Source of the DNA: Propionibacterium ruminifibrarum | GTDB taxonomy: Bacteria > Actinomycetota > Actinomycetes > Propionibacteriales > Propionibacteriaceae | Direction: 5' to 3' | Assembly: GCF_900289195.1 (NCBI RefSeq) | Contig: NZ_OMOH01000016.1 | Coordinates: forward strand, 1 to 16,527 | DNA: 16,527 bases | Shown: positions 962-16,527 of the stretch, piece after piece | Layout: every line of letters starts with the position of its first letter | Position numbering within the stretch: the first letter of the stretch is position 1 | The notes under the pieces: model-generated | What the model was told of the DNA's origin: nothing | Seen by the model: only the letters and a program-made list of their open reading frames with translations | The model's database searches: none | Position numbers and translations under genes: made by a program

Positions 962-1317
962 GAACGGTGTCAATGGCTCCATCGCCCGTCAAGGAGCCAT
1001 GACGACCGGGGGCAGCAGCCACCAGCAGTAGCCCGTCGACCGTGGGGTTGGCCAGACTGGAGGCCATGACCCCGACACCACCACCAGAGGAGTCGGCGGA
1101 GCCGGACATGGCCCGGCGTGAGGCGATCGCGCAGATGGTGCGCCGGGCCAAGGACGCCGGTACCGCCCTGATGGCCCGCTCAAGGCGTTGACCATGAAGG
1201 CCGTCGACGAGATGACCACCTGGATGGCCCGGCCGTTGGAGCCCATCCACACAGCGGTGTTCATCGACGCGATTCGAGAATCAAAGTGCGTGACGGGCAG
1301 GGCGGCACGGGCCGAGG
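950..1317 (+). mobile_element. IS256-family (Mutator-type) insertion sequence remnant; transposase pseudogene with frameshifts and a large internal deletion
   Basis: ATG at 1066, preceded by GGAGG, opens MTPTPPPEESAEPDMARREAIAQMVRRAKDAGTAL and then hits a stop. A shifted frame continues PLKALTMKAVDEMTTWMARPLEPIHTAVFIDAIR, and another shift gives VRDGQ. The LLKALT segment and the W..RPL....VFIDAI.VKVRDGQ segment are spaced far apart in intact IS256-type transposases (~400 aa). Only ~85 codons remain here. The left boundary is placed where paralog 1/5 homology breaks (950). The right boundary is approximate, and no terminal inverted repeats were identified. Confidence 0.55.
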
Positions 1318-2145
1318 TCAGCTCTCGGCCGTCACGGGCTCGTCACCGGCGACGATGACGTCCGGGCTCCTCCTGCGCAACTCCGAGACGATCGGCCCGG
1401 GGGTTCCCGAATCCACGATGACATGGTCGAACTCGCCGACGTCGGCGAACCGGAAGATTCCCCTCCTGGTGAATTTCGCATGGTCGGCGAGCAGGACGGA
1501 CTCGTTCCCAGCCCGCAGCATGGCCCTCTTGACCTCTGCCACATCCTCGTAGGGGTGGACACAGGACATGGCCACGATCCCGGGCGCGGACAGGAAACAA
1601 TAATCCGTCGTGATCCTCTTGAGCGCCTCCAGCGTGATGGCCCCCATGGACGAGTGAGCCCACGGTCGGTACTCACCGCCGATGATGACCAGTCCGGACA
1701 CCTTCTCCGATATCGCCTGGTTCGCGATGAGCAACGAATTGGTCACGATCGTCAAGGTGTCGACGCGATCGAGGGACCTGAACAGCCACACCCCGGCGCT
1801 GGAGTCGTCAAGGAGGACGGAACTGCCGGGCGCGACGAGCGAGGCCCCGGCCCGGGCGATGATCCTCTTCTCCTCCGCGCCCTGCTCCACCCTGAAAATG
1901 GCGTCGACCGCGTGAAGGCCGTTCACGACGGCGACGATGCGCCCCCGATTCCTGCGCAACACGCCACAGTCCTCAAGAATGCTCACGTCACGGTAGATCG
2001 TCATCACCGATACGCCGATGAGACCGGCGAGTTCCTCCGCAGTTGCGGCGTCACCAGTCATGACAGCCTTGGCAATGGCCAGCTGGCGAGCACGAACACT
2101 CATTCCAGAGGATCGGCCCTCCTGGTTCTCCCTCATTGTCATCAC
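1318..2145 (-). CDS. DeoR-family transcriptional regulator (N-terminal HTH plus DeoR C-terminal sugar-phosphate sensor domain)
   Basis: MSVRARQLAIAKAVMTGDAATAEELAGLIGVSVMTIYRDVSILEDCGVLRRNRG is a typical DeoR HTH. The C-terminal part (ILLDDSSAG...IVTNSL...GGEYRP...) is DeoR-C-like. The start is ambiguous: GTG 2145, ATG 2142 or 2136, or ATG 2103 (MSVRAR...). Confidence 0.85.
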   Translation of the reverse strand: MMTMRENQEGRSSGMSVRARQLAIAKAVMTGDAATAEELAGLIGVSVMTIYRDVSILEDCGVLRRNRGRIVAVVNGLHAVDAIFRVEQGAEEKRIIARAGASLVAPGSSVLLDDSSAGVWLFRSLDRVDTLTIVTNSLLIANQAISEKVSGLVIIGGEYRPWAHSSMGAITLEALKRITTDYCFLSAPGIVAMSCVHPYEDVAEVKRAMLRAGNESVLLADHAKFTRRGIFRFADVGEFDHVIVDSGTPGPIVSELRRRSPDVIVAGDEPVTAES

Positions 2146-2215
2146 ATCCTCGACAGATGACCGAACCGATGCTACAGAGAGATCATCCCCGCTTCATGGC
2201 CGAACACCGCACTTT

Positions 2216-2240
2216 GAGGCCCGCAGGGCGGCCGGGCCTC
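2216..2240 (-). terminator. GC-rich hairpin downstream of the isomerase gene (candidate intrinsic terminator, no U-tract)
   Basis: GAGGCCCG (2216-2223) and CGGGCCTC (2233-2240) form a perfect 8-bp stem with a 9-nt loop. It lies 30 nt past the stop at 2270. Confidence 0.35.
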
Positions 2241-2269
2241 TTCAGGCTTCTGCTGCCCCTCGACGAGCC

Positions 2270-3100
2270 TCACGGCCCACCCGCCCTCTCCGCCTGGCCA
2301 CGCTCGGACACCGGCAACCAACCCAGTGGATCCGAGTCCCCCGCGGGGTCGTACTCGAGACCCACATACCCGGAGTAGCCCAGGTCGACCAGTGCCCCGA
2401 GGATGTTGGCGAAGTTGAGCTCCCCGGTTCCCGGGCGCCCTCTGGTGGGGACATCGGCGATCTGCACGTGCCCGATGCGACCCATGATCCTGGAAAGGGT
2501 CGAGATGACATTCCCCTCCGTCAGCTGAGCGTGGTAAACGTCGTAGAGGAGCACGACGTTGTCGCTCCGACAGGCCTCCACCACTCGCATCGCCTCGTCA
2601 GTGTCGCGGCACGCGTAGTTCCGGTGCGCAGACCTGTTGAGGGGCTCGACGAGAATCCTCCTGCCCTGCGCGCACGCCTCGAGCGCGGCCCAGCGCATGT
2701 TCTCGACGAGGCAGTCCATTCCGACGGCTCGGCTCCGATCCCCGGGAATGTCCCCGGCCAGTACGTTGATGTCGTCGCAATCGGAAAGCACCGCGAAGTC
2801 GAGCGCCTCGAGGAACCGGGCGCGCCATTCTTCCACCCGGTCCGGGTCGGCCGCGAAGCCGCGCTCGCCCTGCGCATAATCGCCCTCGTACATGTTGAAC
2901 ATGGATATCCGGACGTGCTCGCGCCGAGCGGCCGCGGCCACCTGCCGGTAATCGACTCCGGCGGGCCAGAACAACTCAACGGCTCCGAAGCCGTCCTGTC
3001 TGGCGGCGGAAAACCTCTCGAGCAGCGGGCGGTCCGTGTGGAACCAGCCCAAGCTGAGGGAGTAGGAGAACCTCCTCCCCCGCGGATGAATCGTTGCCAT
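2270..3100 (-). CDS. Hydroxypyruvate isomerase family protein (Hyi/OtnI-like, xylose-isomerase-like TIM barrel)
   Basis: Family motifs present: GERG, ILVEPLN, YDVYHAQLTEG, IGHVQIADVPTRGRPGTGELN, GYVGLEYDP. The preferred start is ATG 3100 (MATIHPRG), preceded by GGAGAGAGG. The ORF track extends to 3178, but that extension lacks an RBS. Confidence 0.85.
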   Translation of the reverse strand: MATIHPRGRRFSYSLSLGWFHTDRPLLERFSAARQDGFGAVELFWPAGVDYRQVAAAARREHVRISMFNMYEGDYAQGERGFAADPDRVEEWRARFLEALDFAVLSDCDDINVLAGDIPGDRSRAVGMDCLVENMRWAALEACAQGRRILVEPLNRSAHRNYACRDTDEAMRVVEACRSDNVVLLYDVYHAQLTEGNVISTLSRIMGRIGHVQIADVPTRGRPGTGELNFANILGALVDLGYSGYVGLEYDPAGDSDPLGWLPVSERGQAERAGGP

Positions 3101-3229
3101 GGCCTCTCTCCGTTGCACAATTGATTCAGCGTGACGAGTCAGGAATGGACGGCCCCCGCCCGGGACCTCGCAGCCCACCGCGAGACGTGTTCATGGCACG
3201 ACAGGGCAGAGATCTGTCAGGGGGTTGCG

Positions 3230-3239
3230 TTTCTGAAAA
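3230..3239. promoter_or_regulatory. TTTCTGAAAA motif upstream of the isomerase gene, identical to one arm of the 7644-7667 palindrome (candidate operator half-site)
   Basis: An exact 10-mer is shared with 7658-7667. Both copies sit in intergenic DNA roughly 120-170 nt upstream of minus-strand genes. The motif is AT-rich within GC-rich sequence. Confidence 0.3.
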
Positions 3240-3371
3240 AGTTCTGTGGGCAAGTTCCCGTGATCGGTCATGCCGTCGTGATCCGTTCTTCCAGCGGGCC
3301 GGCTGGACGCCGTCCCGGCCCGGACGCGATGTCCTGGCCCTGTGCCCGCCCGGGGCCGCCCACGTCGACGG

Positions 3372-3406
3372 CCCCGGACACCCGATCGGGCGGCACCCGT
3401 CCGGGG
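3372..3406 (-). terminator. Hairpin immediately after the MFS transporter stop codon (candidate terminator)
   Basis: CCCCGGAC (3372-3379) pairs with GTCCGGGG (3399-3406). The loop contains the self-complementary CCCGATCGGG. There is no U-tract. Confidence 0.3.
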
Positions 3407-3407
3407 G

Positions 3408-4715
3408 TCAAACAGCGGCCTCGTCCTTCGCGGGCGTGGGTGCCACCTCGTCGAGGACGAAGACGATGGAGACGAGCCCGACCACCGCCCACGCGCCGAT
3501 GTAGACCATCATCGCGTTGTACCCGCTGAGACTGACCAGATAGCCGGCGACGACGGGTGAGATGGCACCGAACAGGTTAGTGCAGAACCCGTACACGCTA
3601 TTGGCGACAGCGACGCATTCCTTCCTCGAGACCTCCGCCGGAAGAATCCACGCACAGTTGCCCATGGCAGCCCCGAAGTAACCGATGGAGATGATCACGA
3701 GTCCGGCGAGCTGACCGTGGGCGAAGGGCATGACGAGCACCACCGCGGTGAGAACGAGACCAATCACGATGGGGACCTTGCGGGCGTGTTTCCTGCTCAC
3801 ACCGCGCGCGACCAAGTGGTCACTGATCCATCCCCCGAAGACGATACCGACCAGCGCGCACAGGTAGGGGATCGTGCCCTTGACGCCGCCCCTCAGGCCT
3901 CCCGTCACATCGACGTCGAAGGCCTCGCGCATGTACTTGGGGAGCCAGGTCATGAAGAAGAAGAACGCGGTCGACGTGGCACCGGTGATGATGTACAGGG
4001 CGATGAGACGCCGGTCGCTCAGAACGTACTTCACGTGCTCGCGCGTGGTCCTCCCGGCGCTCCTCTCCTCGCCGCCGCCGGCCTGGATGAGCTCGACCTC
4101 GGTCTTGTTGACCCGCGGCGCCCCCTGCGGGGTGTCGTGCACGACCGCCCGCCAGAACACCGAGACGAGCAGGGTGACGGCACCCGCGAAGACGAAGGCT
4201 CCTCGCCAGCCCCACGCGTGGGTGACGCCGGCAACGATCGGGATGCCGAGAGCGGTGCCGCAGGTGGCCGCGAACTGGTAACTCGAGACCGACTTCGCGC
4301 GCTCAGTGGGCGGGAACCAGCGGCGCACCAGCGTCGCGTTCATCGGGAAGGTCGGTGCCTCGAAGACGCCGAGTCCCAGGCGGCAGGCCATGAGCGACTT
4401 GAACCCGACTGTGCCGCCGCTGAGCAGCGTCATGAGCCCGAAGCCGATGAGGCCCACGAAGCCGACGATCCGCTCCCCGAACTTCTGCATGAGGACGCCG
4501 AAGACCAGGATGACGACCACGATGCCCCAGACGAAGGCCGAGGAGAGCCAGCCGTACTGGACATCGCTCATCCCGAATTCCTTCTGGACCGTCGGTCCGA
4601 CGACGGCGAGCACCGCCCGGTCCAGGTAATTGGCGAAGGTCGCCGCGATCATCGCGGCGAGGACCCAGACCCGGAACCGGGTCGGTCTCGCCTCTTCAAC
4701 AAGTTTCGCTGACAT
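3408..4715 (-). CDS. MFS transporter, anion:cation symporter (ACS) type, likely an acid-sugar or organic-anion importer
   Basis: 435 aa with about 12 hydrophobic segments. The N-terminal FANYLDRAVLAVVGPTVQKEFGMSDVQYGWLSSAF and GLGVFEAPTFP...RWFP..ERA motifs are typical of hexuronate/galactonate/tartrate-type MFS carriers. GAGGG lies 8 nt before the ATG. Confidence 0.85.
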   Translation of the reverse strand: MSAKLVEEARPTRFRVWVLAAMIAATFANYLDRAVLAVVGPTVQKEFGMSDVQYGWLSSAFVWGIVVVILVFGVLMQKFGERIVGFVGLIGFGLMTLLSGGTVGFKSLMACRLGLGVFEAPTFPMNATLVRRWFPPTERAKSVSSYQFAATCGTALGIPIVAGVTHAWGWRGAFVFAGAVTLLVSVFWRAVVHDTPQGAPRVNKTEVELIQAGGGEERSAGRTTREHVKYVLSDRRLIALYIITGATSTAFFFFMTWLPKYMREAFDVDVTGGLRGGVKGTIPYLCALVGIVFGGWISDHLVARGVSRKHARKVPIVIGLVLTAVVLVMPFAHGQLAGLVIISIGYFGAAMGNCAWILPAEVSRKECVAVANSVYGFCTNLFGAISPVVAGYLVSLSGYNAMMVYIGAWAVVGLVSIVFVLDEVAPTPAKDEAAV

Positions 4716-4805
4716 TGATTAACCCTCGATGTTCTTCGTGGGGTCCGGTCCGAGTCCGCCCACGGCCCCGCGTGGACGGCCCGCACCATGACCCGATGGT
4801 TTCGT

Positions 4806-5408
4806 TCATTCCGAGCCGCCGAGGAGGAAGGCGATCATTGCGGTCTCCTCGACCAACTCAGCAAGGTGCTCGGCCGCTATGGGGTCGCGGCCCAGTGCCA
4901 CGAGACCGTGGTCACGCAGGACGAAGGCCATCGGCGCCGACGGCCCAGCAGCGATGACGGACCCGACCCGTGGCCAGTCCTGCGGGGGTACGGCCGCGTG
5001 GTGCACGTCGATCACGGGGAAACCGTTGGGCTGCTTCATCCTGGAGTGCCAGGTGGGCTGGGGGATCCTCTCGTGCGATCTGGCGACGGCGATCGAATAG
5101 GGCGCATGGCAGTGCACGATCGCGTTCACGTCCGGGCGCGTCTCATAAATCCTCGCGTGGAGGAACGCCTCACGAGTCGGTGCGCCCCGCCCGGAGAGCA
5201 CGTTCCCCGAGAGGTCGGTTTCGAGGAAGTCGTCCGCATCGCAGTCGGCCAGGGACGTTCCACTGCGCGTCACGATCATCGAGCGGCTGTCCGGCCCCAC
5301 GCGGGCGCTGACGTTACCCCCGTCGCCGGTCTGGATCCCGCGCCGGTAGGCACGCCGGGCCGCCCTCACGAGCAGTTCCCTCACATCGTCTTGGCCGTCC
5401 ATCGTCAT
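4806..5408 (-). CDS. Class II aldolase/adducin-domain protein (aldolase, epimerase or decarboxylase fold)
   Basis: GNVSAR, the metal-binding VHCHAPY and the later DHG motifs are present. ATG 5408 overlaps the upstream stop as ATGA. ATG 5402 has better spacing from GGAGG and is an alternative start. Confidence 0.85.
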   Translation of the reverse strand: MTMDGQDDVRELLVRAARRAYRRGIQTGDGGNVSARVGPDSRSMIVTRSGTSLADCDADDFLETDLSGNVLSGRGAPTREAFLHARIYETRPDVNAIVHCHAPYSIAVARSHERIPQPTWHSRMKQPNGFPVIDVHHAAVPPQDWPRVGSVIAAGPSAPMAFVLRDHGLVALGRDPIAAEHLAELVEETAMIAFLLGGSE

Positions 5409-6655
5409 TCACCTCCGCACGTGGTCCGGCCGGAGATCCTCGCGAAGAGATCGGCAGCAGCAGTCCCAAATCCCTCTGTGTTCAGGTCGCCCTCGAAGAG
5501 GGTCGTCCTCAAACCGGGCCCTGCGCTCTCGATGATCGCGTCAACCAGCGCCTTGTCGACCTCGGGATCGTGCATCTTCCCGCCTGCCTCGGCCTCGGAG
5601 CGGAGGGCGCCGGTCGGGATCAGCATGTCAACGCCCCGGTGGCTCCCCGCGATCCTGCCGCCGATGACGCGTCCGACCCTTCTCGCCTCCTCAACCGTCA
5701 GCTTGATGTGCGCGAGGTTGCTGTTGTGCAGGACAAACCGGCGCCCCGCCAGGCCAACCGGGAAGTTGTCGGTCCAGTCGTCGATGAAGTCCAGCCCGCC
5801 CGGAGCCAGGAGCACCGGCGCGTCACCGGCCAGGAGCCGCTCCAAACGGCCTTTCGCACCGACCGAGTAGCCGGTTTCCATGACATCGCTGACGATCTCG
5901 TGGAGTGTCATGTCGAGTGCCCCGTGGAGCAGCCCCTCTTCGACGCACTCCTCCATCGTCGGCCCGCCCGAACCCGTGGCGTGGAAGCCCACCGGCTCGA
6001 AACCGAGTTCCCGCAGCCGTCTGATCGCCGCCACGGCGGCGATGTTGGTCACGCCCATCTGGGTCAACCCCACCGACAGCCGGCTCCCCCGCCGGATTCC
6101 CTCCCCCGGGTTCTCGGCGAGAGTGAGCATGCCGGCCAAGCAGGCGCACGCGTTGTCGAGCGTCGTCCGCGTGAACATGTTCACCCCGGCGAGATCGGAC
6201 AGGGACGGGACCACGATGATGTCCCTGTTTCCGGTGACGAGCTGGAATTCCCGTGGTCCGGTGGCCGCCGTGGTCACCATCACCTTGGGCAGACCGATGG
6301 GAAGGCGCCGCATGGCCGAGGTCGCGAGAACGGTGTTCTGGAGTCCTCCGGCCGAGATGATCCCGTGGACCTGCCCCTCCCGGTGGAGACGACAGATGAA
6401 CTCCGCCGCAACAGCGGCCATGAAATCGATCTTCTCTCCCCTGCCGGAACTCGCCAGTGCATTCCACTCGGCGCTGTGAAAACGACGGATCTCATTCGAG
6501 GAGTATCCGGTCCCGGGATCGAGCGGATCGGTGTCGAGGGTCGAGACGTCGATGTAGAAGGGATCGAGGTGGGACGCAGCCAAGCGGGAGAACATGAAGC
6601 GCATCTCCTCCCGTTTGGTGTCCCAGCTACCGACGATCGCTGCTCGTGGTGCCAT
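5405..6655 (-). CDS. UPF0261 family protein (Tm-1-like ATP-binding domain), function uncharacterised
   Basis: Starting at MAPRAAIVGSWDTKREEMRF, it matches the family N-terminus (I.GT.DTK..E). GGLQNTVLATSAMRRLPIGLPKVMVTTAATG matches the conserved GG......AMR.LP.G.PK.MVST core. The start at 6655 is preceded by GGGGGAA. The 516-aa ORF in the track is an Arg/Ser/Thr-rich out-of-frame overlap with the upstream gene. Confidence 0.8.
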   Translation of the reverse strand: MAPRAAIVGSWDTKREEMRFMFSRLAASHLDPFYIDVSTLDTDPLDPGTGYSSNEIRRFHSAEWNALASSGRGEKIDFMAAVAAEFICRLHREGQVHGIISAGGLQNTVLATSAMRRLPIGLPKVMVTTAATGPREFQLVTGNRDIIVVPSLSDLAGVNMFTRTTLDNACACLAGMLTLAENPGEGIRRGSRLSVGLTQMGVTNIAAVAAIRRLRELGFEPVGFHATGSGGPTMEECVEEGLLHGALDMTLHEIVSDVMETGYSVGAKGRLERLLAGDAPVLLAPGGLDFIDDWTDNFPVGLAGRRFVLHNSNLAHIKLTVEEARRVGRVIGGRIAGSHRGVDMLIPTGALRSEAEAGGKMHDPEVDKALVDAIIESAGPGLRTTLFEGDLNTEGFGTAAADLFARISGRTTCGGE

Positions 6656-7472
6656 CGGTTCCCCCAATGATCGGGTTCTCCGCCAGACGATCGGGAAGGG
6701 TCTTGTCGTGCGCGGGAAGGATCTGGTGCCTCTCCTCGACGCGGGCCTTCTGCTTGCGAACGCTGTTCCACGTCGCCACGACGTCGGCGAAGCGGCCCGG
6801 CGGGATGATGTCGTAGTGCAGTTCCGGAATCGGGTCGAGATTGCGCAGATCGAAGAGGGAGTCGCCGGCGCAGATGTAGTTCCGGCCGTCGGCGCAGTCG
6901 ACCTCGACGGAGACGTGCCCCGGCGAGTGCCCGAACGTCTCGAGGATCCTGACACCCGGGATCACCTCGAGCTCGTCACCCTCGACTGGCTCGATGTGCG
7001 TGTTCCCCTTGTAGGGGGCCTCGAGTCCGAGCGCGGGATCCTCGTATGACTTGTAGTACAGGGGGATCGGGTGCTGGGCGAACTCGTATTCGCGCCGGTG
7101 GACGAGCACTCGGGAGTTGTTGAACTTCTCGAGATAGTAGGAATGGTCCCAGTGCAGGTGCGTGAGGATCACAATGTCGATGTCATCGCACGAGTACCCC
7201 ACGCTCTTAAGCATGCTCTCGATGTCCTGTCCCTCATCCTGCCAGGAGCCGGGATGGTGGTACTCATTGGCCCGTTCCGTCCAGGACATCCCCGTGTCGA
7301 CGAGAACGAGCCGATCACCGCCCTCGACGAGAAAAGCATAATCGGGAAGCGGAATCTTCTCGTCCGGGACGTCCCTCAGGTAGGGCTCCGCCGAGAAGTG
7401 GAAATGATACTGAAGAGGCTTGGTCGGGATGAACCCGGTATTCAACGGCCTGATCGTCAGGTTCGATGCCAC
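6627..7472 (-). CDS. MBL-fold metallo-hydrolase (lactonase-like, AiiA/AHL-lactonase-type architecture)
   Basis: HxHxDH motif LTHLHWDHSYY plus a later GHSPGH. The preferred start is GTG 7472, preceded by AGGAGA at 6 nt. The ORF track starts at ATG 7526. The 3' end overlaps the UPF0261 start by 29 nt. Confidence 0.8.
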   Translation of the reverse strand: MASNLTIRPLNTGFIPTKPLQYHFHFSAEPYLRDVPDEKIPLPDYAFLVEGGDRLVLVDTGMSWTERANEYHHPGSWQDEGQDIESMLKSVGYSCDDIDIVILTHLHWDHSYYLEKFNNSRVLVHRREYEFAQHPIPLYYKSYEDPALGLEAPYKGNTHIEPVEGDELEVIPGVRILETFGHSPGHVSVEVDCADGRNYICAGDSLFDLRNLDPIPELHYDIIPPGRFADVVATWNSVRKQKARVEERHQILPAHDKTLPDRLAENPIIGGTDGTTSSDRR

Positions 7473-7643
7473 TTTGCGTCTCCTAAACGAAGTTGTGGAT
7501 AGCGCCGCCACGAGGTATCGCGCCATGGCGGTTCACCCCCGACGTCGACACCCCCTGCGGCACACCAAAATTATTTCCACGAAATGCCCCGGTCAAGCAC
7601 ACCCCATCCCTCAAGACAGGGACTCCCCACAATGTCAGATGTG

Positions 7644-7667
7644 TTTTCAAAAATATATTTCTGAAAA
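7644..7667. promoter_or_regulatory. 24-bp AT-rich near-perfect palindrome TTTTCAAAAATATATTTCTGAAAA, candidate operator (DeoR?) in the divergent intergenic region
   Basis: 22 of 24 positions are self-complementary. It lies in the lowest-GC stretch of the window (about 7560-7860), upstream of the MBL-led minus-strand operon. One arm recurs at 3230-3239. Confidence 0.4.
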
Positions 7668-7975
7668 TCGTTTCCAGTTATCACGTTCCTTGTTGACGGG
7701 TTGAACCAATCGGTCGATCAGGGGACACTCCCCTCACACGACCGCTGTTATGCCCTCAACAGAGCACACAGGATCGGACATCAACGGTCACAACTGGACA
7801 CGGCAAATAAAATCCCGGGAATCTCATGATCCGAGATCATTCGTTTCGAGATTCGGTCATCGTGGTGCTCGGCCGGCGGGCTGCCGTCTCACCACACCCC
7901 TCGAACCGTACCAGCGAGCCTCGGAGAGGCAGTTGACCGCACCGAGGGCGCGGGTTGACGAGCGATCACCACACC

Positions 7976-8005
7976 CTGGTCAGGTGGGCCTCGGCCCGAT
8001 AGCTT
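7976..8005 (+). promoter_or_regulatory. Putative leaderless promoter of paralog 2 (CTGGTC, 18 nt, TAGCTT, 7 nt, ATG 8013)
   Basis: Same TANNNT+7 geometry as the other four paralogs, with no SD sequence. Confidence 0.45.
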
Positions 8006-8012
8006 TGTCATC

Positions 8013-8642
8013 ATGCCCAGGACGAACCCCGTTCCCGAGACAGGGACCTCGTTGGCCAGGGGAACGGCCATCGCAGCCCTCGTCTACCACGGCGCCACGC
8101 TCCTGGTGGCCATGGCCCTCGCGATGGTTTACGGCCCGGTGATCTTCATCTTCGGGGGCGCCGCACTCTCCATGGAGGACTACAACAGCCGCGCCGCGGC
8201 GACGGCCATGGTCTTTCTTCTGATGCTCATCATCGCCCTCGTCGTTGTCGCCTCACCCGTCGCGCTGGCTGTCTGGATGATGATCGCCGAGCGCCGCAAC
8301 AACTCGGGGCAGGTGGGGGCGGCGCTCATCGGTTTCTCCCTGCTGGCCGGGCTCGCCCTGATCGCCGTGGTGACCTGGCTCCTCACATCCGGCCCGGGCG
8401 CCCCGACCGCTGTCCTTCTCATGTTTCTCCCCGAGTGCGTCATCATCATTCTCGGGTGGATCGGCTGGGCTCGCATGAGAGGCGCCTGTGCACCCGGCCC
8501 GTTCCCGAACCAGATGCACATCGGCCCCCATCCCACACCCGTCCAACAGCATGCGTCCCACCACGGCCGGCCCCTGACGCCGCCGACCTCGCCGTGGCAG
8601 GGGCAGGAGTCGCCCTGGCCGGCACCAGGGCGGATGGGCTGA
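8013..8642 (+). CDS. Paralog 2 (type B) of the four-TM Pro-rich-tail membrane protein family; hypothetical protein
   Basis: 209 aa. Motifs TSLARGTAIAALVYHG, SPVALAVWMMIAERR, LPECVIIILGWIGWARMR, and tail ending TSPWQGQESPWPAPGRMG. Shares YGPVIFIFGGAALSMEDY with paralog 4. Confidence 0.8.
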   Translation: MPRTNPVPETGTSLARGTAIAALVYHGATLLVAMALAMVYGPVIFIFGGAALSMEDYNSRAAATAMVFLLMLIIALVVVASPVALAVWMMIAERRNNSGQVGAALIGFSLLAGLALIAVVTWLLTSGPGAPTAVLLMFLPECVIIILGWIGWARMRGACAPGPFPNQMHIGPHPTPVQQHASHHGRPLTPPTSPWQGQESPWPAPGRMG

Positions 8643-8853: not shown

Positions 8854-9480
8854 ATGAGCCAGATCACCCCAGCCCCCGAGGCCAACATCTCATTGGCCAA
8901 GGGCTCGGCCATCCTCGCCATCGTCTATCACAGCATCCTCGTTGCGACGGCTTTGGCCACCACCGTAGCCATCGGCGGGATGACAACGCTGATGGGCTAC
9001 AGCGGATCCGGAGGACTCGAGGGCGAAGGGTCTCGAGCCGCGAGGGAAGTCATGCTCATCACCGTGATGGCCCTCATGGCCACTCTCGCGCTCCTGACCC
9101 TGTCGATCTGGATGCTCGTCTCCGTACGTCGTTACCGCCTCTGGCACGTGTGCACAGCGCTCATCGTCTTCTCGGGGCTCGCCGCGCTCCCCCTGATCAT
9201 CGCGGCGATCGGGCTAGCGCCCAGCGCCCTGTTCTCGTTCAGCCTCTACCTCCTCCCCGAAATCCTCGTCGCCCTTCTCGGCTGGTTCGGCTGGTTCCGC
9301 ATGAGACGCCCACCCGAGGTACCCGCCGTCGGCCAGTTCTCGTACCAGCTGCCGCCGCCCGGCCCCTACACCGCCCATCCCCCGCAGTACGCGCCCGCGC
9401 CCTACCGCCTGCCCCCGCCGAGCTCATCGCCCTGGTACGGGCAGAGCACGCCCTGGCCCGGTGGACAGCCGGGCCGGTAG
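8854..9480 (+). CDS. Paralog 3 (type C, most divergent) of the four-TM Pro-rich-tail membrane protein family; hypothetical protein
   Basis: 208 aa. Motifs NISLAKGSAILAIVYHS, LSIWMLVSVRR, LPEILVALLGWFGWFRMRRPP, and tail PPPGPYTAHPPQYAPAPYRLPPPSSSPWYGQSTPWPGGQPGR. Confidence 0.8.
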   Translation: MSQITPAPEANISLAKGSAILAIVYHSILVATALATTVAIGGMTTLMGYSGSGGLEGEGSRAAREVMLITVMALMATLALLTLSIWMLVSVRRYRLWHVCTALIVFSGLAALPLIIAAIGLAPSALFSFSLYLLPEILVALLGWFGWFRMRRPPEVPAVGQFSYQLPPPGPYTAHPPQYAPAPYRLPPPSSSPWYGQSTPWPGGQPGR

Positions 9481-9483
9481 CCT
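9453..9483 (+). promoter_or_regulatory. Putative leaderless promoter of paralog 4, embedded in the 3' end of paralog 3 (CTGGCC, 19 nt, TAGCCT, 7 nt, ATG 9491)
   Basis: The TAG of the -10 hexamer (9478-9480) is the stop codon of paralog 3. The -35-like element lies in the codons for the terminal TPWPG motif. Confidence 0.45.
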
Positions 9484-9490
9484 GGCGGCC

Positions 9491-10141
9491 ATGACGCAGC
9501 TCAGCCCCGCTCCACAGACAGACGTCTCGTTGGTCAGGGGAACGGCCATCGCCGCCCTCATCTACCAGGGCGCCATCTTCCTGGCAGCCATGGCCGTCGC
9601 GCTGACCTACGGCCCGATCATCTTCATCTTCGGCGGCGCCGCGCTCTCCATGGAGGGCTACAGCAGTCAAGCCATGACGGACGCCGGAATCTTCTTCCTG
9701 GTGTGCATCGCCGCTTTCGTCCTTACCACGGCGCCCTTCGTCCTAGCGGTTTGCATGTTCATCGCCGCACGCCGCAATGACATACGCCAGATGAAGGTGG
9801 TGCTCGTCCTCTTCACCCTGGTGTCCGCACTCACACCGATCGGCATGGTGGCCCTGATCGCAACCGCCCACCACATCCCGGCCGCCGCCCTTCTCGCGAC
9901 GATCCCCGAGTGGGCGATCGTCGTTCTTGGCTGGACCGGTTGGACACGCATGAGGCACCCGTCAGCACCAGTCGCCGACCAGTCGCCTCAGCAGATGCCT
10001 CAGCCGGCCCCCGGGGTGCTGGCTCAGCACCCCGAGCCAGTACCTCACCACGGCCAGTCCCAGACGCTCCCCACCGACCTCGCCGTGGCAGGGACAGGTG
10101 TCACCAGGTCACCATGGCAGGCGCCGGGGCGGATGGGTTGA
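9491..10141 (+). CDS. Paralog 4 (type B') of the four-TM Pro-rich-tail membrane protein family; hypothetical protein
   Basis: 216 aa from ATG 9491 (MTQLSPAPQTDVSLVRGTAIAALIYQG), aligned with the N-termini of the other paralogs. The ORF track's GTG 9461 start adds 10 residues that overlap paralog 3. Motifs YGPIIFIFGGAALSMEGY, IPEWAIVVLGWTGWTRMR, ending RSPWQAPGRMG. Confidence 0.8.
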   Translation: MTQLSPAPQTDVSLVRGTAIAALIYQGAIFLAAMAVALTYGPIIFIFGGAALSMEGYSSQAMTDAGIFFLVCIAAFVLTTAPFVLAVCMFIAARRNDIRQMKVVLVLFTLVSALTPIGMVALIATAHHIPAAALLATIPEWAIVVLGWTGWTRMRHPSAPVADQSPQQMPQPAPGVLAQHPEPVPHHGQSQTLPTDLAVAGTGVTRSPWQAPGRMG

Positions 10142-10412: not shown

Positions 10413-11066
10413 ATGACCCAGAACAGCCTCACCCCGGCAGGAAACGCCTCACTGGTCAAGGGAGCCGCGATCGCGGCACTGGTCTATCGCGGTCTCGCCT
10501 TCCTGGCGTTCGGATTCTTCGCGTCCAGCCTCACATCGCTGTTCTTCCCCTTGGCGTCCCTTGTCCCCACTGGCACCAGCGATTCCCCCAGTGAGTTGTC
10601 GGCGGCCCCCGCGGTTCTGCTCATCTTCCTTCTCACTGCCCTCGGCGCCCCCGTTGCGCTGTCGATCTGGATGCTCGCCGCAGCGAATCGGGGCCGCTCG
10701 GGGCAGGTGCTCGCGGCACTCATCCTGTACTCGATCCCCCTCGGTCTCTCCCTGATCGAGGGGATCGTCGTTGTCGTCTCGTACGATCACGACCCGGCCC
10801 TGTCTGGCCCCTCCCTCAACCCCGTGATCGGGATCCTGCCCGAAGCGGCCATCATCATCGTCGGCTGGGTCGGCTGGTGGCAGATGAGACGCCCACCCGC
10901 GGCGCCCGCCATCGACCAACCCCCATACCAGGTGCAGCAGCCGATCCCCTACACCGCACCCCCACAGCAGTACGCACCGCCGTATCAGGGCCCGCCCCAG
11001 ACGCCCCAGCCTCCGCCGCAGCCGGGGCAGAGCTCACCGTGGCAGCGGCCGGGCCAGAGGGGTTGA
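10413..11066 (+). CDS. Paralog 5 (type A') of the four-TM Pro-rich-tail membrane protein family; hypothetical protein
   Basis: 217 aa from ATG 10413 (MTQNSLTPAGNASLVKGAAIAALVYRG). The track's 322-aa ORF carries a 105-aa Arg/Pro-rich N-terminal extension with no counterpart in the other paralogs. The C-terminal ~65 aa are almost identical to paralog 1. Confidence 0.8.
   Translation: MTQNSLTPAGNASLVKGAAIAALVYRGLAFLAFGFFASSLTSLFFPLASLVPTGTSDSPSELSAAPAVLLIFLLTALGAPVALSIWMLAAANRGRSGQVLAALILYSIPLGLSLIEGIVVVVSYDHDPALSGPSLNPVIGILPEAAIIIVGWVGWWQMRRPPAAPAIDQPPYQVQQPIPYTAPPQQYAPPYQGPPQTPQPPPQPGQSSPWQRPGQRG
10848..11042 (+). repeat. Right copy of the 195-nt direct repeat (3' end of paralog 5), about 94% identical to 755-949
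   Basis: See 755-949. Confidence 0.8.
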
Positions 11067-11326: not shown

Positions 11327-12793
11327 TCAGCGAGACGCCCCACCTCGCCGGGAAACCGTTCGGGCATGCCGCAACCCCGGGTCGGGACTGCTCCAGCGCC
11401 CGCCCGTGATGTCGATGACCACGCCGGTCACCACGCAGACCAGCGTCGGGAAGGTCCAGCCCGTCTCGTCGTTCCAGAGCCGGGTGCGAGCCAGCAGGAC
11501 GCTGGGTGCGGTGACACCGAGAGCGCTCAGCGCCGAGACCAGGCCAAGCAGCCCGGCGCAGGCCGTGCCCCATCGGTACGCGGCACGCAGGTGGCCGGGT
11601 GCCACCGCGTCGACGAGGGTGACCGCGACGAGCGTGATGGCGACCGGGTACAGCAGCAGGGTGATGGGGAAGACGATCCTCACGATCATGCCGAGCCCCA
11701 GGTTCGCCAGGAAGAAGCAGACCACCGTGCCCGCCACGAGCTGTCGGCCGAAGCCCACTCGTGGCCATGCTGTCGCCGCATAGCTCGACCAGGCGCTGAG
11801 CAGGCCGGCCGATGTGGTGAGACAGGCGAGGATGACCACGGCGGCGAAGATCACGACACCGGCACCGCCCAGCGAATGGGCTGCGGCGCCCCGCAGCAGC
11901 CCCGCGCCATCGCTCGGGTCGCCACCACCGACACGGGCACCGAGCATGGCCAGGCCAAGGTAGACCAGGCCCAGTAGCGCGGCGGCGATGGCAGCGGCCA
12001 CCGAGGCGGCACTGACGGTCCTGCGGCGGTCCGTCGCTCCCTGCGAGTCCAGCGCGTTGAGCACGACGAGGCCGAACACCGAGGCCGCCAGCACGTCCAT
12101 CGTGAGGTACCCCTGCACGAGGCCGGTTCGGAACGGACTGGTCGCATATCCACCGGCGGGCTCCTGCTCGGCTGCGGGGAGCCGTACGAGGACGACCACG
12201 CACAGCACCGCAACGAGTATGAGCAGTGTCGGGGTGAGCCAGTGTCCGATCCGGTCGGCCAGGCGGGAGGGTTTGAGGGCCAGCAGCAGGGTGAGGCACC
12301 CGAACACGGCCGCGTGCACGGGCAGCGCCCAACGTCCGGGCTCGACGCCGGCCTGAGCCAGCAACGAGCGGGTGGCCAGTTCGTACGAGACCGTCACGAC
12401 GCGCGGCACCGCGTACAGGGGACCGATGACGAGGTAGACGACCAGCGGCATGAGGGTACCGAACCGGGGCCCGACGCGGTGCGCGATGCCGCTGATACCC
12501 TCCCCCGAGGTCGACACGGCGACAATCGTGGCGAGCGGCAGGATCACTCCGGTGAGGAGGAAGCCCGCGAGGACGACGGGGAGGTGCGCACCGGCCGAGG
12601 CGCCCAGCACCGGCGGGAAGATGAGGTTCCCCGCGCCGAAGAACAGGGCGAAGAGCATGAGCCCGGTCGTGGTGACGTGACCGGTGGGGTTGGTCTGGGC
12701 AGGCACGGGGACCTCTTGTCTGGTACGGCGGCGTGGCAGGGACCCGTACACAGTAGACGAGGAGGCAACCTTGCCCACATCAGTGGCTGGCAC
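11327..12793 (-). CDS. brnQ: Branched-chain amino acid transport system II carrier protein (LIVCS family)
   Basis: GLMLFALFFGAGNLIFPPVLG is the BrnQ signature near the N-terminus. There are about 12 TM segments. The track start GTG 12793 gives an unusually long N-terminus. GTG 12706, preceded by AAGAGG at 6 nt, is a plausible alternative (460 aa). Confidence 0.85.
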   Translation of the reverse strand: MPATDVGKVASSSTVYGSLPRRRTRQEVPVPAQTNPTGHVTTTGLMLFALFFGAGNLIFPPVLGASAGAHLPVVLAGFLLTGVILPLATIVAVSTSGEGISGIAHRVGPRFGTLMPLVVYLVIGPLYAVPRVVTVSYELATRSLLAQAGVEPGRWALPVHAAVFGCLTLLLALKPSRLADRIGHWLTPTLLILVAVLCVVVLVRLPAAEQEPAGGYATSPFRTGLVQGYLTMDVLAASVFGLVVLNALDSQGATDRRRTVSAASVAAAIAAALLGLVYLGLAMLGARVGGGDPSDGAGLLRGAAAHSLGGAGVVIFAAVVILACLTTSAGLLSAWSSYAATAWPRVGFGRQLVAGTVVCFFLANLGLGMIVRIVFPITLLLYPVAITLVAVTLVDAVAPGHLRAAYRWGTACAGLLGLVSALSALGVTAPSVLLARTRLWNDETGWTFPTLVCVVTGVVIDITGGRWSSPDPGLRHARTVSRRGGASR

Positions 12794-12820
12794 GACGGCT
12801 GGTCCCCTACGGGCAGGGCC

Positions 12821-13537
12821 TCACAGGGACGCGCCCGTGCGCCGCTCGAGAATGCCGATGAGCCGGTTCTGGAACCTCGGGTCGAGGGCCGCCCGATGCG
12901 GCTCGGTGGCACGACGGTGGTGCCAGTAGCCTCCGGTGCGCGGGGTGATGTCGGTCTCGGGCGCGGTGGCGAGCCATTCCTGGGTGCGGTGCCCGGCGGT
13001 GAGGTCGTCCGGGGCGCCCGGGCCGCCCATTCTCGTGGGCACCCAGCCGGGATCGACGGCATGGGCGAGCGTGTCACCGCTGCTGCGGGCGAGGGCCATG
13101 GCGAACGCCGTGACGCACAGCTTGCTCGTGCTGTACGAGCCCCGGTCGAAGTCGTCGGCGCCGACTCGGGTGTCACCGTCGCGGTGCATCGAGCTGGACG
13201 TGACGATGATGCGCCCGGGCAGCGGCATGCAAGCGGTGAGCAGGTAGGGGGCCACCACATTGACGGCCATGACGTCCGGGCCGCTGAGGACACCGGCATT
13301 GTGGATGACCGCGTCGAGGGGGCCGAGAGCGGCCGCCTGCTCGGCGACGGCCCGCACCTGGCCGGGGTCGGCCAGGTCGCCGCAGATCACGGTGTGCATG
13401 CGGGCGAGCACGTCCGGGTCGGTGAGCCGATCTGCGCTGCGCAGGTGAGCAACCACATCGTGCCCCGCGTCGGCGAGGGATTCCGCGATGAGTCGCCCCA
13501 GCCCCGAGGACGCCCCTGTCACCATCACCCGTGCCAT
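12821..13537 (-). CDS. SDR-family (short-chain dehydrogenase/reductase) oxidoreductase
   Basis: VTGASSGLG (TGxxxGxG) cofactor motif and YSTSK (YxxxK) catalytic motif. ATG 13537 is preceded by GGAGAGGAG at 6 nt. The track uses TTG 13543. Confidence 0.85.
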   Translation of the reverse strand: MARVMVTGASSGLGRLIAESLADAGHDVVAHLRSADRLTDPDVLARMHTVICGDLADPGQVRAVAEQAAALGPLDAVIHNAGVLSGPDVMAVNVVAPYLLTACMPLPGRIIVTSSSMHRDGDTRVGADDFDRGSYSTSKLCVTAFAMALARSSGDTLAHAVDPGWVPTRMGGPGAPDDLTAGHRTQEWLATAPETDITPRTGGYWHHRRATEPHRAALDPRFQNRLIGILERRTGASL

Positions 13538-13749
13538 GGTCAACTCCTCTCCTGCGGAGCCAGCATGTCATGCCCGACGGGCCGCGGCCAGAGCAGGTCC
13601 ACGTGGCAGGGCCCGTGCGGGACGTCAGACCAGCTCGCGTCCTGGCAGGGAGCCTCTTGGTCCTCGTCCGCCATGAGCCATGGCTGCCGAGGCGCACGTC
13701 GGCCGATCAGCAGGCGCAGCCGGGCCGCAGAAGGCCGGACGTCCAGCCC

Positions 13750-15132
13750 TCAGCGCCCTGCGGAAAGCGTGGCGAGCACCTCGTTGAGCGCCTCGGTGCT
13801 GGACGGGTGGGTCCAGATGCCGTCGCGCAGCTGGGTGGCGGTGGCGCCGGCGCGCATGGCGAGGGCCACGAGGTTGATGACCTCCTGGGCGTCCGTGCTG
13901 AACACGGTGGCGCCGAGCACCTTGTCGGTGGCCGGATCGATGAGCACCTTGATGAGGCCGTGGGTCTCGCCGAGGATCTTCGGCCGGGGCATGGCGGCGA
14001 TGTCGGCGACCTTCTTGGCGGCGACCACGTGGTCGATGCCCTGCCGGCGCGCCTCGCGTTCGGTCAGACCGACCTGGGCCAGCGGCGGGGTGATGAAAGT
14101 GGTGGTCGGCACCGCCGACCGGTCAGCGGTGGAGCGGGATCCGTCGCCTGCGAGCTGACTTGCGAGAATGCGGTAGTCGTCGAGCGAGATGTAGGTGAAC
14201 TGCGGTCCCCCGTTGACGTCGCCGGCCGCCCAGATGCCGGGCACGGAGGTGGCCAGGTGCTCGTCGACGATGATGAAGCCGCGCTCGTCGGTGGCGACAC
14301 CTGCGGCGCCCAGGTTCAGGGCCGCTGTCTCGGGTCTGCGGCCGGTGGCGACCAGCACGGCCTCCGCGTCGATGCGTCCGGCGGACGTGTTCACGCCGGT
14401 CGCGTCGATGGCCTCGACCACTGCGCCGGTGAGGATCCGTACGCCGCGGTCGGTGAGGGCGGTGACGACGGCCTCGCGCACGTCGTCGTCCAGGCCGTCC
14501 AGGCCGGAGCCGAACCGGGCCGAGCGTTCGAGGACGGTGACCTGTGAACCGAATGCGGCGAACATCGAGGCGAACTCCATGGCGATGAAGCCGCCGCCGA
14601 TGATGGCGAGCCGTTCCGGGAGGTCGGTGATGTGCTGGATCGACTGCGAGGTGTGCACGTTCGGCCCGTCGATGCCCGGCAGGTCGGGCAGCAGCGGGCT
14701 GCTGCCGGTGTTGATGACGATCTGGTCCGCCGTGATCTCGAGGGTCTCGTCACCGCCGCGCACCCGGACCCGATGGGGCCCGGTGAACCGGGCCTCACCG
14801 CCGATGAGTGTGACGGCCTCGACCGTCTCGAGCATGGCCCGGTTGGCGGCACGCAGCCTGGTGACGAGGGAGTCGCGCGAGGCGATGGCCTGGCGCAGGT
14901 ACGCGGCCGGCTCGGCGCCGGCACGGTGCTCGGCGGAGTCGATGAGGTCCTTGGTGGGCACGCAGGCCACATTGATGCAGGAACCGCCGATGAGGGAGTC
15001 ATCGCGTTCGACGAGCACGACGCGTCGGCCCCGCCCGCCGAGGTCCTTGGCCAAGGTCTTGCCGGCCTTGCCCCAGCCGATGATGAGCAGATCGGCGGCC
15101 AGGGTCTGAGTCGTGGCGCTGGGTCCTGTCAT
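13750..15132 (-). CDS. rclA: Class I pyridine nucleotide-disulfide oxidoreductase, RclA-like (reactive chlorine/HOSCN/Cu(II) reductase type; often annotated as mercuric reductase homolog)
   Basis: IIGWGKAGKTLA dinucleotide motif, redox-active CINVAC in GGSCINVACVPTK, FTYISLDDYRI, and the C-terminal THPSSTEALN dimerisation motif. These align along the whole length with my recollection of E. coli RclA. The preferred start is ATG 15132. The symbol is tentative. Confidence 0.8.
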   Translation of the reverse strand: MTGPSATTQTLAADLLIIGWGKAGKTLAKDLGGRGRRVVLVERDDSLIGGSCINVACVPTKDLIDSAEHRAGAEPAAYLRQAIASRDSLVTRLRAANRAMLETVEAVTLIGGEARFTGPHRVRVRGGDETLEITADQIVINTGSSPLLPDLPGIDGPNVHTSQSIQHITDLPERLAIIGGGFIAMEFASMFAAFGSQVTVLERSARFGSGLDGLDDDVREAVVTALTDRGVRILTGAVVEAIDATGVNTSAGRIDAEAVLVATGRRPETAALNLGAAGVATDERGFIIVDEHLATSVPGIWAAGDVNGGPQFTYISLDDYRILASQLAGDGSRSTADRSAVPTTTFITPPLAQVGLTEREARRQGIDHVVAAKKVADIAAMPRPKILGETHGLIKVLIDPATDKVLGATVFSTDAQEVINLVALAMRAGATATQLRDGIWTHPSSTEALNEVLATLSAGR

Positions 15133-15139
15133 GGCGACA

Positions 15140-15169
15140 AGAATATTGGCCGCCGGCCGCTGCACCAGC
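15140..15169 (-). promoter_or_regulatory. Putative leaderless promoter of the rclA-like gene (-10 TATTCT 15145-15140, 7 nt to ATG 15132)
   Basis: On the minus strand the sequence reads CTGGTG-(17 nt)-TATTCT-tgtcgcc-ATG. There is no SD sequence. The TANNNT+7 geometry matches the paralog promoters. Confidence 0.35.
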
Positions 15170-15327
15170 AGCCCGGCTACGCGATGAGCGGACAGGCGAG
15201 CCAGCCCCGGTGCGGCGCGGGCCGAGCGTGGCCGATGGGCGTGGCAGGCCGGGCCCCTGCCGTGGGCGGCGGCGCCGTGCGGGGACCGGGCTGCTGGGGC
15301 CCGCAGGGCCCGCGGGCAGGTGCCCGG

Positions 15328-16527
15328 CTACAGCCCGAGCAGTGGTTCGACGCGGTCGGCCAGGATCGGAGCCATTGTGAGGGCGTACGGGCCGCTGATG
15401 TGGTTGTCGTCGAGGTAGACGAAGATGTTGCCGATGATCGTGTAGCACTCGCCGTCGACGCAGTACAGATCGGTCGGGTCGATCTGATGGAATTGCGGGA
15501 TCATCAGCAGCTCGACGGCGGGATCGATCCGCGCCAAGTGGGTGTCCTGCGGGAAGGAGCATCCGCCGAATGGCGTGCCGCTGGGGCGTTCGCTGGAGCA
15601 CTCGTAGAGGTCCTTGGTCGACCGCGGGTTGTCGCGGAAACCGATGACGATGATCCCCAGCGAGGAGAGCTGTTCGGCCAGTTCCCTCACGCCGGGCCTC
15701 AGCGCCTCGTCCGGGGAGCCGGGAACGGCCGCGGTCGTGCTGAGCATGACGACATCGGGCGGGTCCTCGGCGAGGAGGTCGAGGACGACCTCGTTCCTGA
15801 TCCGGCACTCGCCGTCGTAGTACTCGGGCTGCCCGAAGGAGCAGCCGCCCATCAGGTACTGGCTCAGGTCCAGGTCGTGACGGCTGGCCAGTGTCAGGGC
15901 GACCGGGGTGATCATCTGCTCGATGTGGGAGTCCCCCACGATGACGATCCGGGGCCGGCCCGCGTTACTGGCCGGCATCGAGCTGCACAGCGTCTCCGTC
16001 TCGCCGAAGAGTTCCTGCTGGCCGGGCGGGCAGGGCGCGGGCAGGTCGGGGATCCAGCTCTCACCGACGGCGAGCGGCCCGGGGATCGGCTCGGCCGAGA
16101 AGTCCTGCGGCCCCTGCGAGAGGATGGCTGCCGCCCCGGGATGATCCGGGTCCCCGGTGCCGCCCAGGGCCGCTGACAGCTGGGCGGCACGACGGCGGTC
16201 GAGGACGATGTCGGTGCTGACGAGTGGGACGAGGCCGACGGCGAGCGAGACGAGCACGACCATGGTCTTCTTGAGTACGATGCGCCCCGTACGCGGGTAG
16301 CGCTGCGCCGGCTGGTCGACGAAACGGGTCATGAACCATGCGAACGCCAGCGAGGCCGCGATCAGGATCGTGCCGCCGCGCAGACCGAGCCTCGCGCGGT
16401 CGAACTGCGCCATGAAGAGCACGAAGACGGGCCAGTGGATCAAGTACACGCTGTACGACATGTCACCCAACGCCACCAACGGACGCCACGACAACAACCG
16501 CTGAACCGAACCCCCCACCGGAGCCGC
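15328..16527 (-). CDS. Acyltransferase family 3 protein with C-terminal SGNH/GDSL-like domain (OafA/YrhL-like), 5'-truncated by the window end
   Basis: LSWRPLVALGDMSYSVYLIHWPVFVLF is the distal part of an acyltransferase-3 membrane domain. It is followed by TM helices and a soluble domain containing IVIVGDSHIEQ (the SGNH block I position). The reading frame stays open to position 16527. Confidence 0.8.
   Translation of the reverse strand, partial: AAPVGGSVQRLLSWRPLVALGDMSYSVYLIHWPVFVLFMAQFDRARLGLRGGTILIAASLAFAWFMTRFVDQPAQRYPRTGRIVLKKTMVVLVSLAVGLVPLVSTDIVLDRRRAAQLSAALGGTGDPDHPGAAAILSQGPQDFSAEPIPGPLAVGESWIPDLPAPCPPGQQELFGETETLCSSMPASNAGRPRIVIVGDSHIEQMITPVALTLASRHDLDLSQYLMGGCSFGQPEYYDGECRIRNEVVLDLLAEDPPDVVMLSTTAAVPGSPDEALRPGVRELAEQLSSLGIIVIGFRDNPRSTKDLYECSSERPSGTPFGGCSFPQDTHLARIDPAVELLMIPQFHQIDPTDLYCVDGECYTIIGNIFVYLDDNHISGPYALTMAPILADRVEPLLGL

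Follow-up and report, generated by a model that had tools for sequence, protein, structure and literature searches.

Which step is catalysed by a UPF0261 (Tm-1-like) protein encoded among enzymes of sugar-acid type, and what does such an operon consume? The question was raised by a block of six genes in the window studied here, the whole 16,527-nucleotide stretch of contig NZ_OMOH01000016.1 of Propionibacterium ruminifibrarum. Its six open reading frames, all on the minus strand from 1318 to approximately 7472, encode in order of transcription a metallo-β-lactamase-fold (MBL) hydrolase, the UPF0261 protein, a class II aldolase-family enzyme, a carrier of the major facilitator superfamily (MFS), a Hyi/OtnI-like isomerase and a DeoR regulator. 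Positions and Pfam families agreed with a first-pass annotation of this DNA, and the MBL and Hyi starts were corrected. The first three genes overlap, by 29 nt at the MBL stop and UPF0261 start (6627-6655) and by the ATGA between UPF0261 and aldolase genes (5405-5408) that the annotation had pointed out. As it had also stated, the block has no DUF1537 kinase, dehydrogenase or PF09370 partner. None of the six proteins scored above a function-level cutoff in NCBIfam, and a literature search found no paper describing this cluster. In this study, we found that the UPF0261 protein belongs to a subfamily with conserved lactonase-like and aldolase-fold neighbours, and that it is very probably a kinase in a catabolic route. 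We give an even chance to a reading in which the operon degrades a small sugar acid or lactone whose oxidation state is already that of a keto acid. The simplest candidates are a five-carbon enediol or keto-acid lactone resembling erythroascorbate and other acids derived from ascorbate.

The UPF0261 subfamily has conserved neighbours in two phyla

UPF0261 proteins with a GG[LVAM]QN motif fell mostly into one clade (support 0.99), apart from the canonical type. Their loci were dereplicated at 85% identity into 26 groups of Actinomycetota and Bacillota, and neighbours were counted within 9 kb. An MBL gene was present in 23 of the 26 groups and a class II aldolase-fold gene in 22; groups without them were contig ends, save one whose MBL gene lay at 9.2 kb. 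The orthologues of both enzymes were 40-70% identical across the phyla; for the MBL alone, 46-71% was recorded. The PF09370 partner was found in none of the subfamily groups but in 25 of 27 other UPF0261 loci, which had no orthologue of this MBL or aldolase; a search of the genome with one query also gave no PF09370 match. Related loci do not count as independent in this comparison, and the flanks of the controls were shorter, but the split held in both phyla. Because the arrangement recurs across two phyla, it is not due to chance, and the association on which the first-pass annotation had staked its reading proved to be conserved. The canonical UPF0261 and PF09370 TIM-barrel pair, fused in plant Tm-1, has the same UPF0261 fold, but it forms a separate clade with a GGSGG-type motif, and its adjacent PF09370 gene is missing in this block.

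The other neighbours varied. Among the 26 groups, GntR/FadR regulators occurred in 18, LerI-like triosephosphate isomerase-family proteins (TIMs) in 14, RpiB in 14, a RuBisCO-like protein (RLP) in 12 (in Bacillota with ABC importers), Hyi in 5 and DeoR in 2. No subfamily locus yielded a match to DUF1537, PdxA or ApnO, and a dehydrogenase was seen in one only. Hyi, which the first-pass annotation had placed in the core, was restricted to actinobacterial-type groups and was divergent from the MBL gene in the four other actinobacterial loci. Hyi and DeoR are therefore accessory. The argument that a DeoR regulator fits a kinase step also lost its force: most relatives carry GntR/FadR instead, and the DeoR of the window was probably recruited locally, as a paralogue in the same genome (C21:350234), beside FGGY kinases, shares 54% identity with it. 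Behind that paralogue lie genes for an uncharacterised membrane protein, for two FGGY kinases and for an Fe-ADH-type dehydrogenase (L102:2235-10452, contig C21), probably a polyol cluster. The Brooklawnia locus represents a fuller actinobacterial form, with Hyi divergent, then MBL, UPF0261, aldolase, MFS, LerI and GntR; the block in the window represents the MFS/Hyi variant of the actinobacteria.

Of 301 genomes from the same family, 2 carried the subfamily, and a sample of 400 others across the class gave none; this rarity suggests lateral acquisition. A scan of genome contigs with a single-protein query gave one locus only. The Blautia/Dorea form had 2,593 members in one 90% cluster, which indicates that it is common in gut metagenomes. 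At some gut loci the RLP gene is in pieces (L074:12714-14011, L077:8574-9604), so it may be dispensable there. Three ABC-type operons contain a URO-D/MtaA-family orthologue, 50-62% identical (L008:2494-3513, L120:8538-9593, L134:8120-9145). A Thermus plasmid locus encodes UPF0261, a class II aldolase, a creatininase/IolN-like hydrolase, a Zn dehydrogenase and a tricarboxylate transporter (L133:3538-12584). It was rejected as the same system, as its UPF0261 is of a different lineage and the pairing with an aldolase-fold enzyme apparently arose independently.

The UPF0261 protein resembles the kinase MarK

The first-pass annotation held that UPF0261 proteins of bacteria lack an assigned function, a view now overtaken by MarK (Saro_1862 of Novosphingobium, PDB 9MPY), a UPF0261 kinase that transfers phosphate from ATP to phenols, leaving ADP (Hall et al. 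2025, PMC12624787). The protein in the window exceeded the PF06792 and PF23189 cutoffs and aligned to Tm-1 and to MarK, with approximately 24% identity to MarK; its AlphaFold model (pLDDT 87) had Tm-1 and MarK as best fold matches. It shares with MarK the two-domain fold, the DTK nucleotide motif and the acceptor Gly/His/His. MarK D14/T15/K16, G195, H219 and H304 correspond to D12/T13/K14, G201, H225 and H310 here, the numbering being assigned by hand from the 9MPY alignment. The MarK operon also lacks a PF09370 partner. The MarK precedent, the conserved residues and the lack of any other kinase in the conserved core support the earlier proposal of a non-orthologous kinase.

The predicted acceptor site differs from that of MarK. 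I285 is replaced by Asp292, the ketone-binding H348 has no counterpart, and there are gains of His316, Lys318 and Arg352. These four residues typify the subfamily, and the last three were invariant in a 15-sequence alignment. The changes would suit a polar, probably anionic acceptor. The protein might instead act like MarK on phenols or on other aromatic enols, or bind ATP without catalysis as Tm-1 does, since phenols are the substrates of the only proven UPF0261 activity and the stacking residue equivalent to H304 is kept. However, the hydrophobic pocket of MarK (I285, H348) is absent, no acvCDEF-like genes as in the MarK context were found in the loci examined, and the genes nearby encode carriers for sugar acids and isomerases for sugar phosphates, so this explanation is very improbable.

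Partner enzymes and carrier

The MBL protein has the HxHxDH motif, His, bridging Asp and C-terminal His of acyl-homoserine lactone (AHL) lactonase-like enzymes, and the corresponding motifs (HLHWDH, GHS/CPGH, GD and the C-terminal H) were invariant in the subfamily. Its best PDB matches were AiiA and 4-pyridoxolactonase, with Phe at the position of AiiA Tyr194, and it reached no equivalog cutoff. The aldolase-family protein contains a FucA-type site with three Zn-binding His, a catalytic Glu (E81) and the phosphate-binding GGN loop. It has R/K at the FucA S72 position and belongs to its own orthologous clade; its best NCBIfam model was OtnC (91 bits, cutoff 250). The Hyi-like protein scored 241 bits against Hyi (cutoff 353) and 225 against OtnI (cutoff 325), with YgbM as best PDB match. 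Orthology to FucA, AraD, MtnB, OtnC, Hyi, OtnI, OiaX or MtnW was rejected on scores below cutoffs.

The best NCBIfam model of the MFS protein was the D-galactonate/ACS type TIGR00893 (259 bits, cutoff 395), and its close homologues, among them the carriers encoded at the Brooklawnia and Cellulomonas loci, were 56-69% identical. The lactonase-like and anion-carrier roles first assigned to the MBL and MFS proteins thus appear sound as predictions. Carriers varied by locus (ACS-type MFS, KdgT, GntP or sugar ABC), which makes an acid or its lactone the likely substrate. Searches with binding proteins, MFS and plasmids revealed no ligand.

A proposed route to a tetrulose phosphate

The MFS carrier would import the anion, and the UPF0261 protein would phosphorylate the acid or lactone with ATP. 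The MBL enzyme would open the lactone, the Hyi-like enzyme may shift the carbonyl (2-oxo to 3-oxo) or epimerise, and decarboxylation by the aldolase-family enzyme would produce an erythrulose phosphate. Isomerases of the LerI and DerI types, encoded in cis in most relatives and possibly in trans on contig C21 here, would then form erythrose-4-phosphate. All of these reactions, whether the kinase acts before the lactonase, where the phosphate sits and what the substrate is are read from sequence and gene context. Since the route has lactonase, kinase and decarboxylase-like steps but no dehydrogenase, the substrate would already be at the keto-acid level. Ascorbate-type enediol lactones fit, because their opening yields 2- or 3-keto acids that a Hyi-like enzyme could interconvert. 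Related chemistry is known: the D-ribonate route uses a 2-to-3-oxo isomerase on its way to erythrulose, a C5 acid losing CO2 to form a tetrulose phosphate (PMC13753588); OtnI and OtnK act on C6 acids (PMC12994016); and ascorbate breakdown leads through diketogulonate to erythrulose and erythroascorbate (PMC5398285). That the substrate is ascorbate-related in particular is possible, at somewhat under even chances.

The expected product follows from the relatives. The TIMs at related loci had LerI (11EF) as first or second match and the GR[SA]AW loop on a TIM fold. They lack the VGGASL motif, and a housekeeping identity was rejected. They belong to at least three lineages, each grouped with TIMs of apiose- or tetrulose-type clusters. 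Such repeated recruitment suggests that erythrulose phosphate is passed to erythrose-4-phosphate, a conversion carried out by LerI/DerI-type isomerases (PMC10733421). Also in favour are the transketolase and phosphofructokinase genes that follow the operon at L001. The window has no LerI or DerI gene; the candidates on contig C21, RpiB and a divergent TIM, lie with a DAK kinase in a cluster of apionate type. Since relatives usually add a LerI-like TIM and a DerI-like RpiB, and candidates exist on C21, a tetrulose phosphate is a rather probable output, and one feeding erythrose-4-phosphate is more likely than the dihydroxyacetone phosphate (DHAP) of the tetronate pathway that the first-pass annotation had taken as its model. 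The C21 cluster (L101:4415-14117) encodes a DUF1537 kinase, PdxA, RpiB, the divergent TIM, GntR, MFS, a xylose-isomerase-fold protein, a PF16896 ApnO-like protein and the DAK kinase.

Several observations weigh against the proposed route. LerI/DerI-like genes were unseen in about half of the groups, some of them on truncated contigs, and the link from the block to C21 is our inference; the TIM there is of a GRFAH type, which makes its LerI assignment less certain. Whether LerI acts on the 1- or the 4-phosphate is disputed (PMC10733421 versus PMC12994016). Sister loci with extra aldolases and a microcompartment, or with an AraD-like gene, may form a different product. No characterised ascorbate gene was found beside any locus, the phosphotransferase system (PTS) next to L009 matching PF03611 only, and binding-protein matches were of generic ribose/allose types.

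Comparison with tetronate, apionate and ascorbate pathways

In its logic the block resembles the pathways for tetronate, ribonate and apionate and the Ula pathway, yet it lacks defining members of each. With the tetronate (OtnI/OtnK/OtnC) and D-ribonate (Rib2D, OrnI, DerK) pathways it shares an acid carrier and the logic of Hyi-family isomerase, kinase and aldolase-fold decarboxylase, but it has neither OtnK nor tetronate dehydrogenase, adds a lactonase, and its relatives carry LerI plus DerI. A C4 route, from 2-oxo- to 3-oxo-tetronate and through kinase and decarboxylase to DHAP, would agree with the best NCBIfam models (OtnC, Hyi/OtnI) and with a window that itself lacks LerI and DerI. It is nevertheless improbable: the scores are far under cutoffs, 21 of 26 groups lack Hyi, a route to DHAP would have no use for LerI/DerI-like genes, and tetronate routes begin with a dehydrogenase (PMC13753588).

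Oxidative apiose/apionate catabolism (ApnO, OiaK, OiaX/OiaC, LerI, DerI) shares the LerI/DerI exit to erythrose-4-phosphate and the use of an RLP or a xylose-isomerase-fold enzyme as alternatives. A branched C5 acid could be used if UPF0261 replaced OiaK and the aldolase-fold enzyme or RLP replaced OiaX, giving L-erythrulose-1-phosphate directly. This would explain LerI plus DerI exactly, and RLP, TIM and RpiB occur together in the Rhizobium etli apiose cluster. It is equally improbable, as neither ApnO, which makes 3-oxo-isoapionate, nor DUF1537 was found at any locus, and no OiaX or OiaC orthologue was found. The RLP is nearer MtnW than OiaX (approximately 29% identical to OiaX, score 219 against a cutoff of 700), the lactonase is of a different fold, and this genome already has a separate apionate-type cluster.

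The E. coli Ula ascorbate pathway, like the block, combines an MBL lactonase with class II aldolase-fold and xylose-isomerase-fold enzymes and DeoR, without a dehydrogenase. The block differs in its AiiA-like MBL, in an aldolase-fold enzyme that is not an AraD/UlaF-type epimerase, and in the lack of UlaD and the UlaABC PTS; without a PTS, a soluble kinase is needed. L-ascorbate itself, or erythorbate, may be the substrate if UPF0261 transfers phosphate to the acidic oxygen of its enediol, as MarK does to the oxygen of a phenol. Lactonase and decarboxylase would then yield a pentulose-1-phosphate, to be cleaved by an aldolase or isomerised by TIM, RpiB or RLP into the pentose phosphate pathway. 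The pairing of MBL lactonase and aldolase-fold enzyme in Ula, the conserved equivalents of MarK G195 and H219, which hold the phenol oxygen, and an RLP resembling ketose-1-phosphate enzymes such as MtnW speak for it. So does L134 (11974-14993), where three class II aldolase-family genes, two of them extra, precede PduL and a bacterial microcompartment (BMC) shell gene, which suggests aldehyde release there. We regard this, the main rival, as unlikely, because the C3 configuration of L-xylulose-1-phosphate would be wrong for a LerI-type site on stereochemical grounds, the TIMs look like ordinary, repeatedly recruited LerI lineages, and no Ula or Yia genes were identified nearby. The wider idea that the oxygen phosphorylated by the subfamily is the enolic one of vitamin C or a C5 analogue, with lactone opening and decarboxylation giving a ketose-1-phosphate, is slightly less doubtful.

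Gene layout and genomic setting

The MBL gene most likely starts at GTG 7472 rather than at 7526, since an AGGAG ribosome site precedes it and homologues start there; Hyi most likely starts at ATG 3100. From the aldolase gene onwards the genes are separated by gaps of 90, 307 and 125 nt. The GC content of the block is 0.62-0.68, against approximately 0.70 in the flanks. An imperfect palindrome at 7644-7667 in the upstream region is a weak operator candidate; it shares with position 3230 a 10-mer that has just 3 occurrences in the genome and is not kept in a species 90% identical. In L011, L012 and L013 (species approximately 90% identical), a deletion of approximately 690 bp between short direct repeats (window 5659 to 4969) has left the 3′ end of the aldolase gene fused behind the 5′ part of UPF0261, indicating a decayed operon in some strains.

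Table 1. Features of the operon and its edges in the window
Feature	Position	Strand	Remarks
MBL-fold hydrolase, AHL-lactonase/4-pyridoxolactonase group	6627..7472	-	PF00753; core member; proposed lactonase
UPF0261/Tm-1-like protein, GGLQN subfamily	5405..6655	-	PF06792 and PF23189; proposed ATP-dependent kinase
Class II aldolase-family Zn enzyme	4806..5408	-	PF00596; core member; proposed decarboxylase or C-C lyase for a phosphorylated keto acid
ACS-type MFS anion carrier	3408..4715	-	PF07690; TIGR00893, 259 bits; cluster-dedicated in actinobacteria
Hyi/OtnI-like isomerase	2270..3100	-	PF01261; accessory, actinobacterial variant only
DeoR regulator	1318..2145	-	PF00455 and PF08220; accessory, in place of usual GntR/FadR
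AT-rich upstream region, probable promoter	7473..7970		GC 0.575 over 7001-8000
Degenerate IS256 (Mutator) transposase remnant, left block edge	1110..1310	+	Weak PF00872 match, E=0.021; frameshifted motifs

The operon lies between copies of five paralogous membrane proteins (329-961, 8013-8642, 8854-9480, 9461-10141 and approximately 10440-11066) with Pro/Gln-rich tails, 29-64% identity and no Pfam match, seen on this contig only. The window from 11327 to 16518 is unrelated and encodes a BrnQ-type transporter, a short-chain dehydrogenase, a pyridine nucleotide-disulphide oxidoreductase and an acyltransferase-SGNH protein.

Implications

The five-enzyme short versions of Brooklawnia cerclae and Blautia allow a direct in vitro test of the pathway. 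If the enolic-oxygen route were true, common gut Lachnospiraceae (Blautia, Dorea) and a few actinobacteria would have an ascorbate-type pathway that needs no PTS and relies on new kinase chemistry. The proposed pathway would also give a place to an unassigned clade of MtnW-like RLPs. If confirmed, it would represent an undescribed carbon-scavenging pathway and a second activity for the UPF0261 family, the first on a sugar acid.

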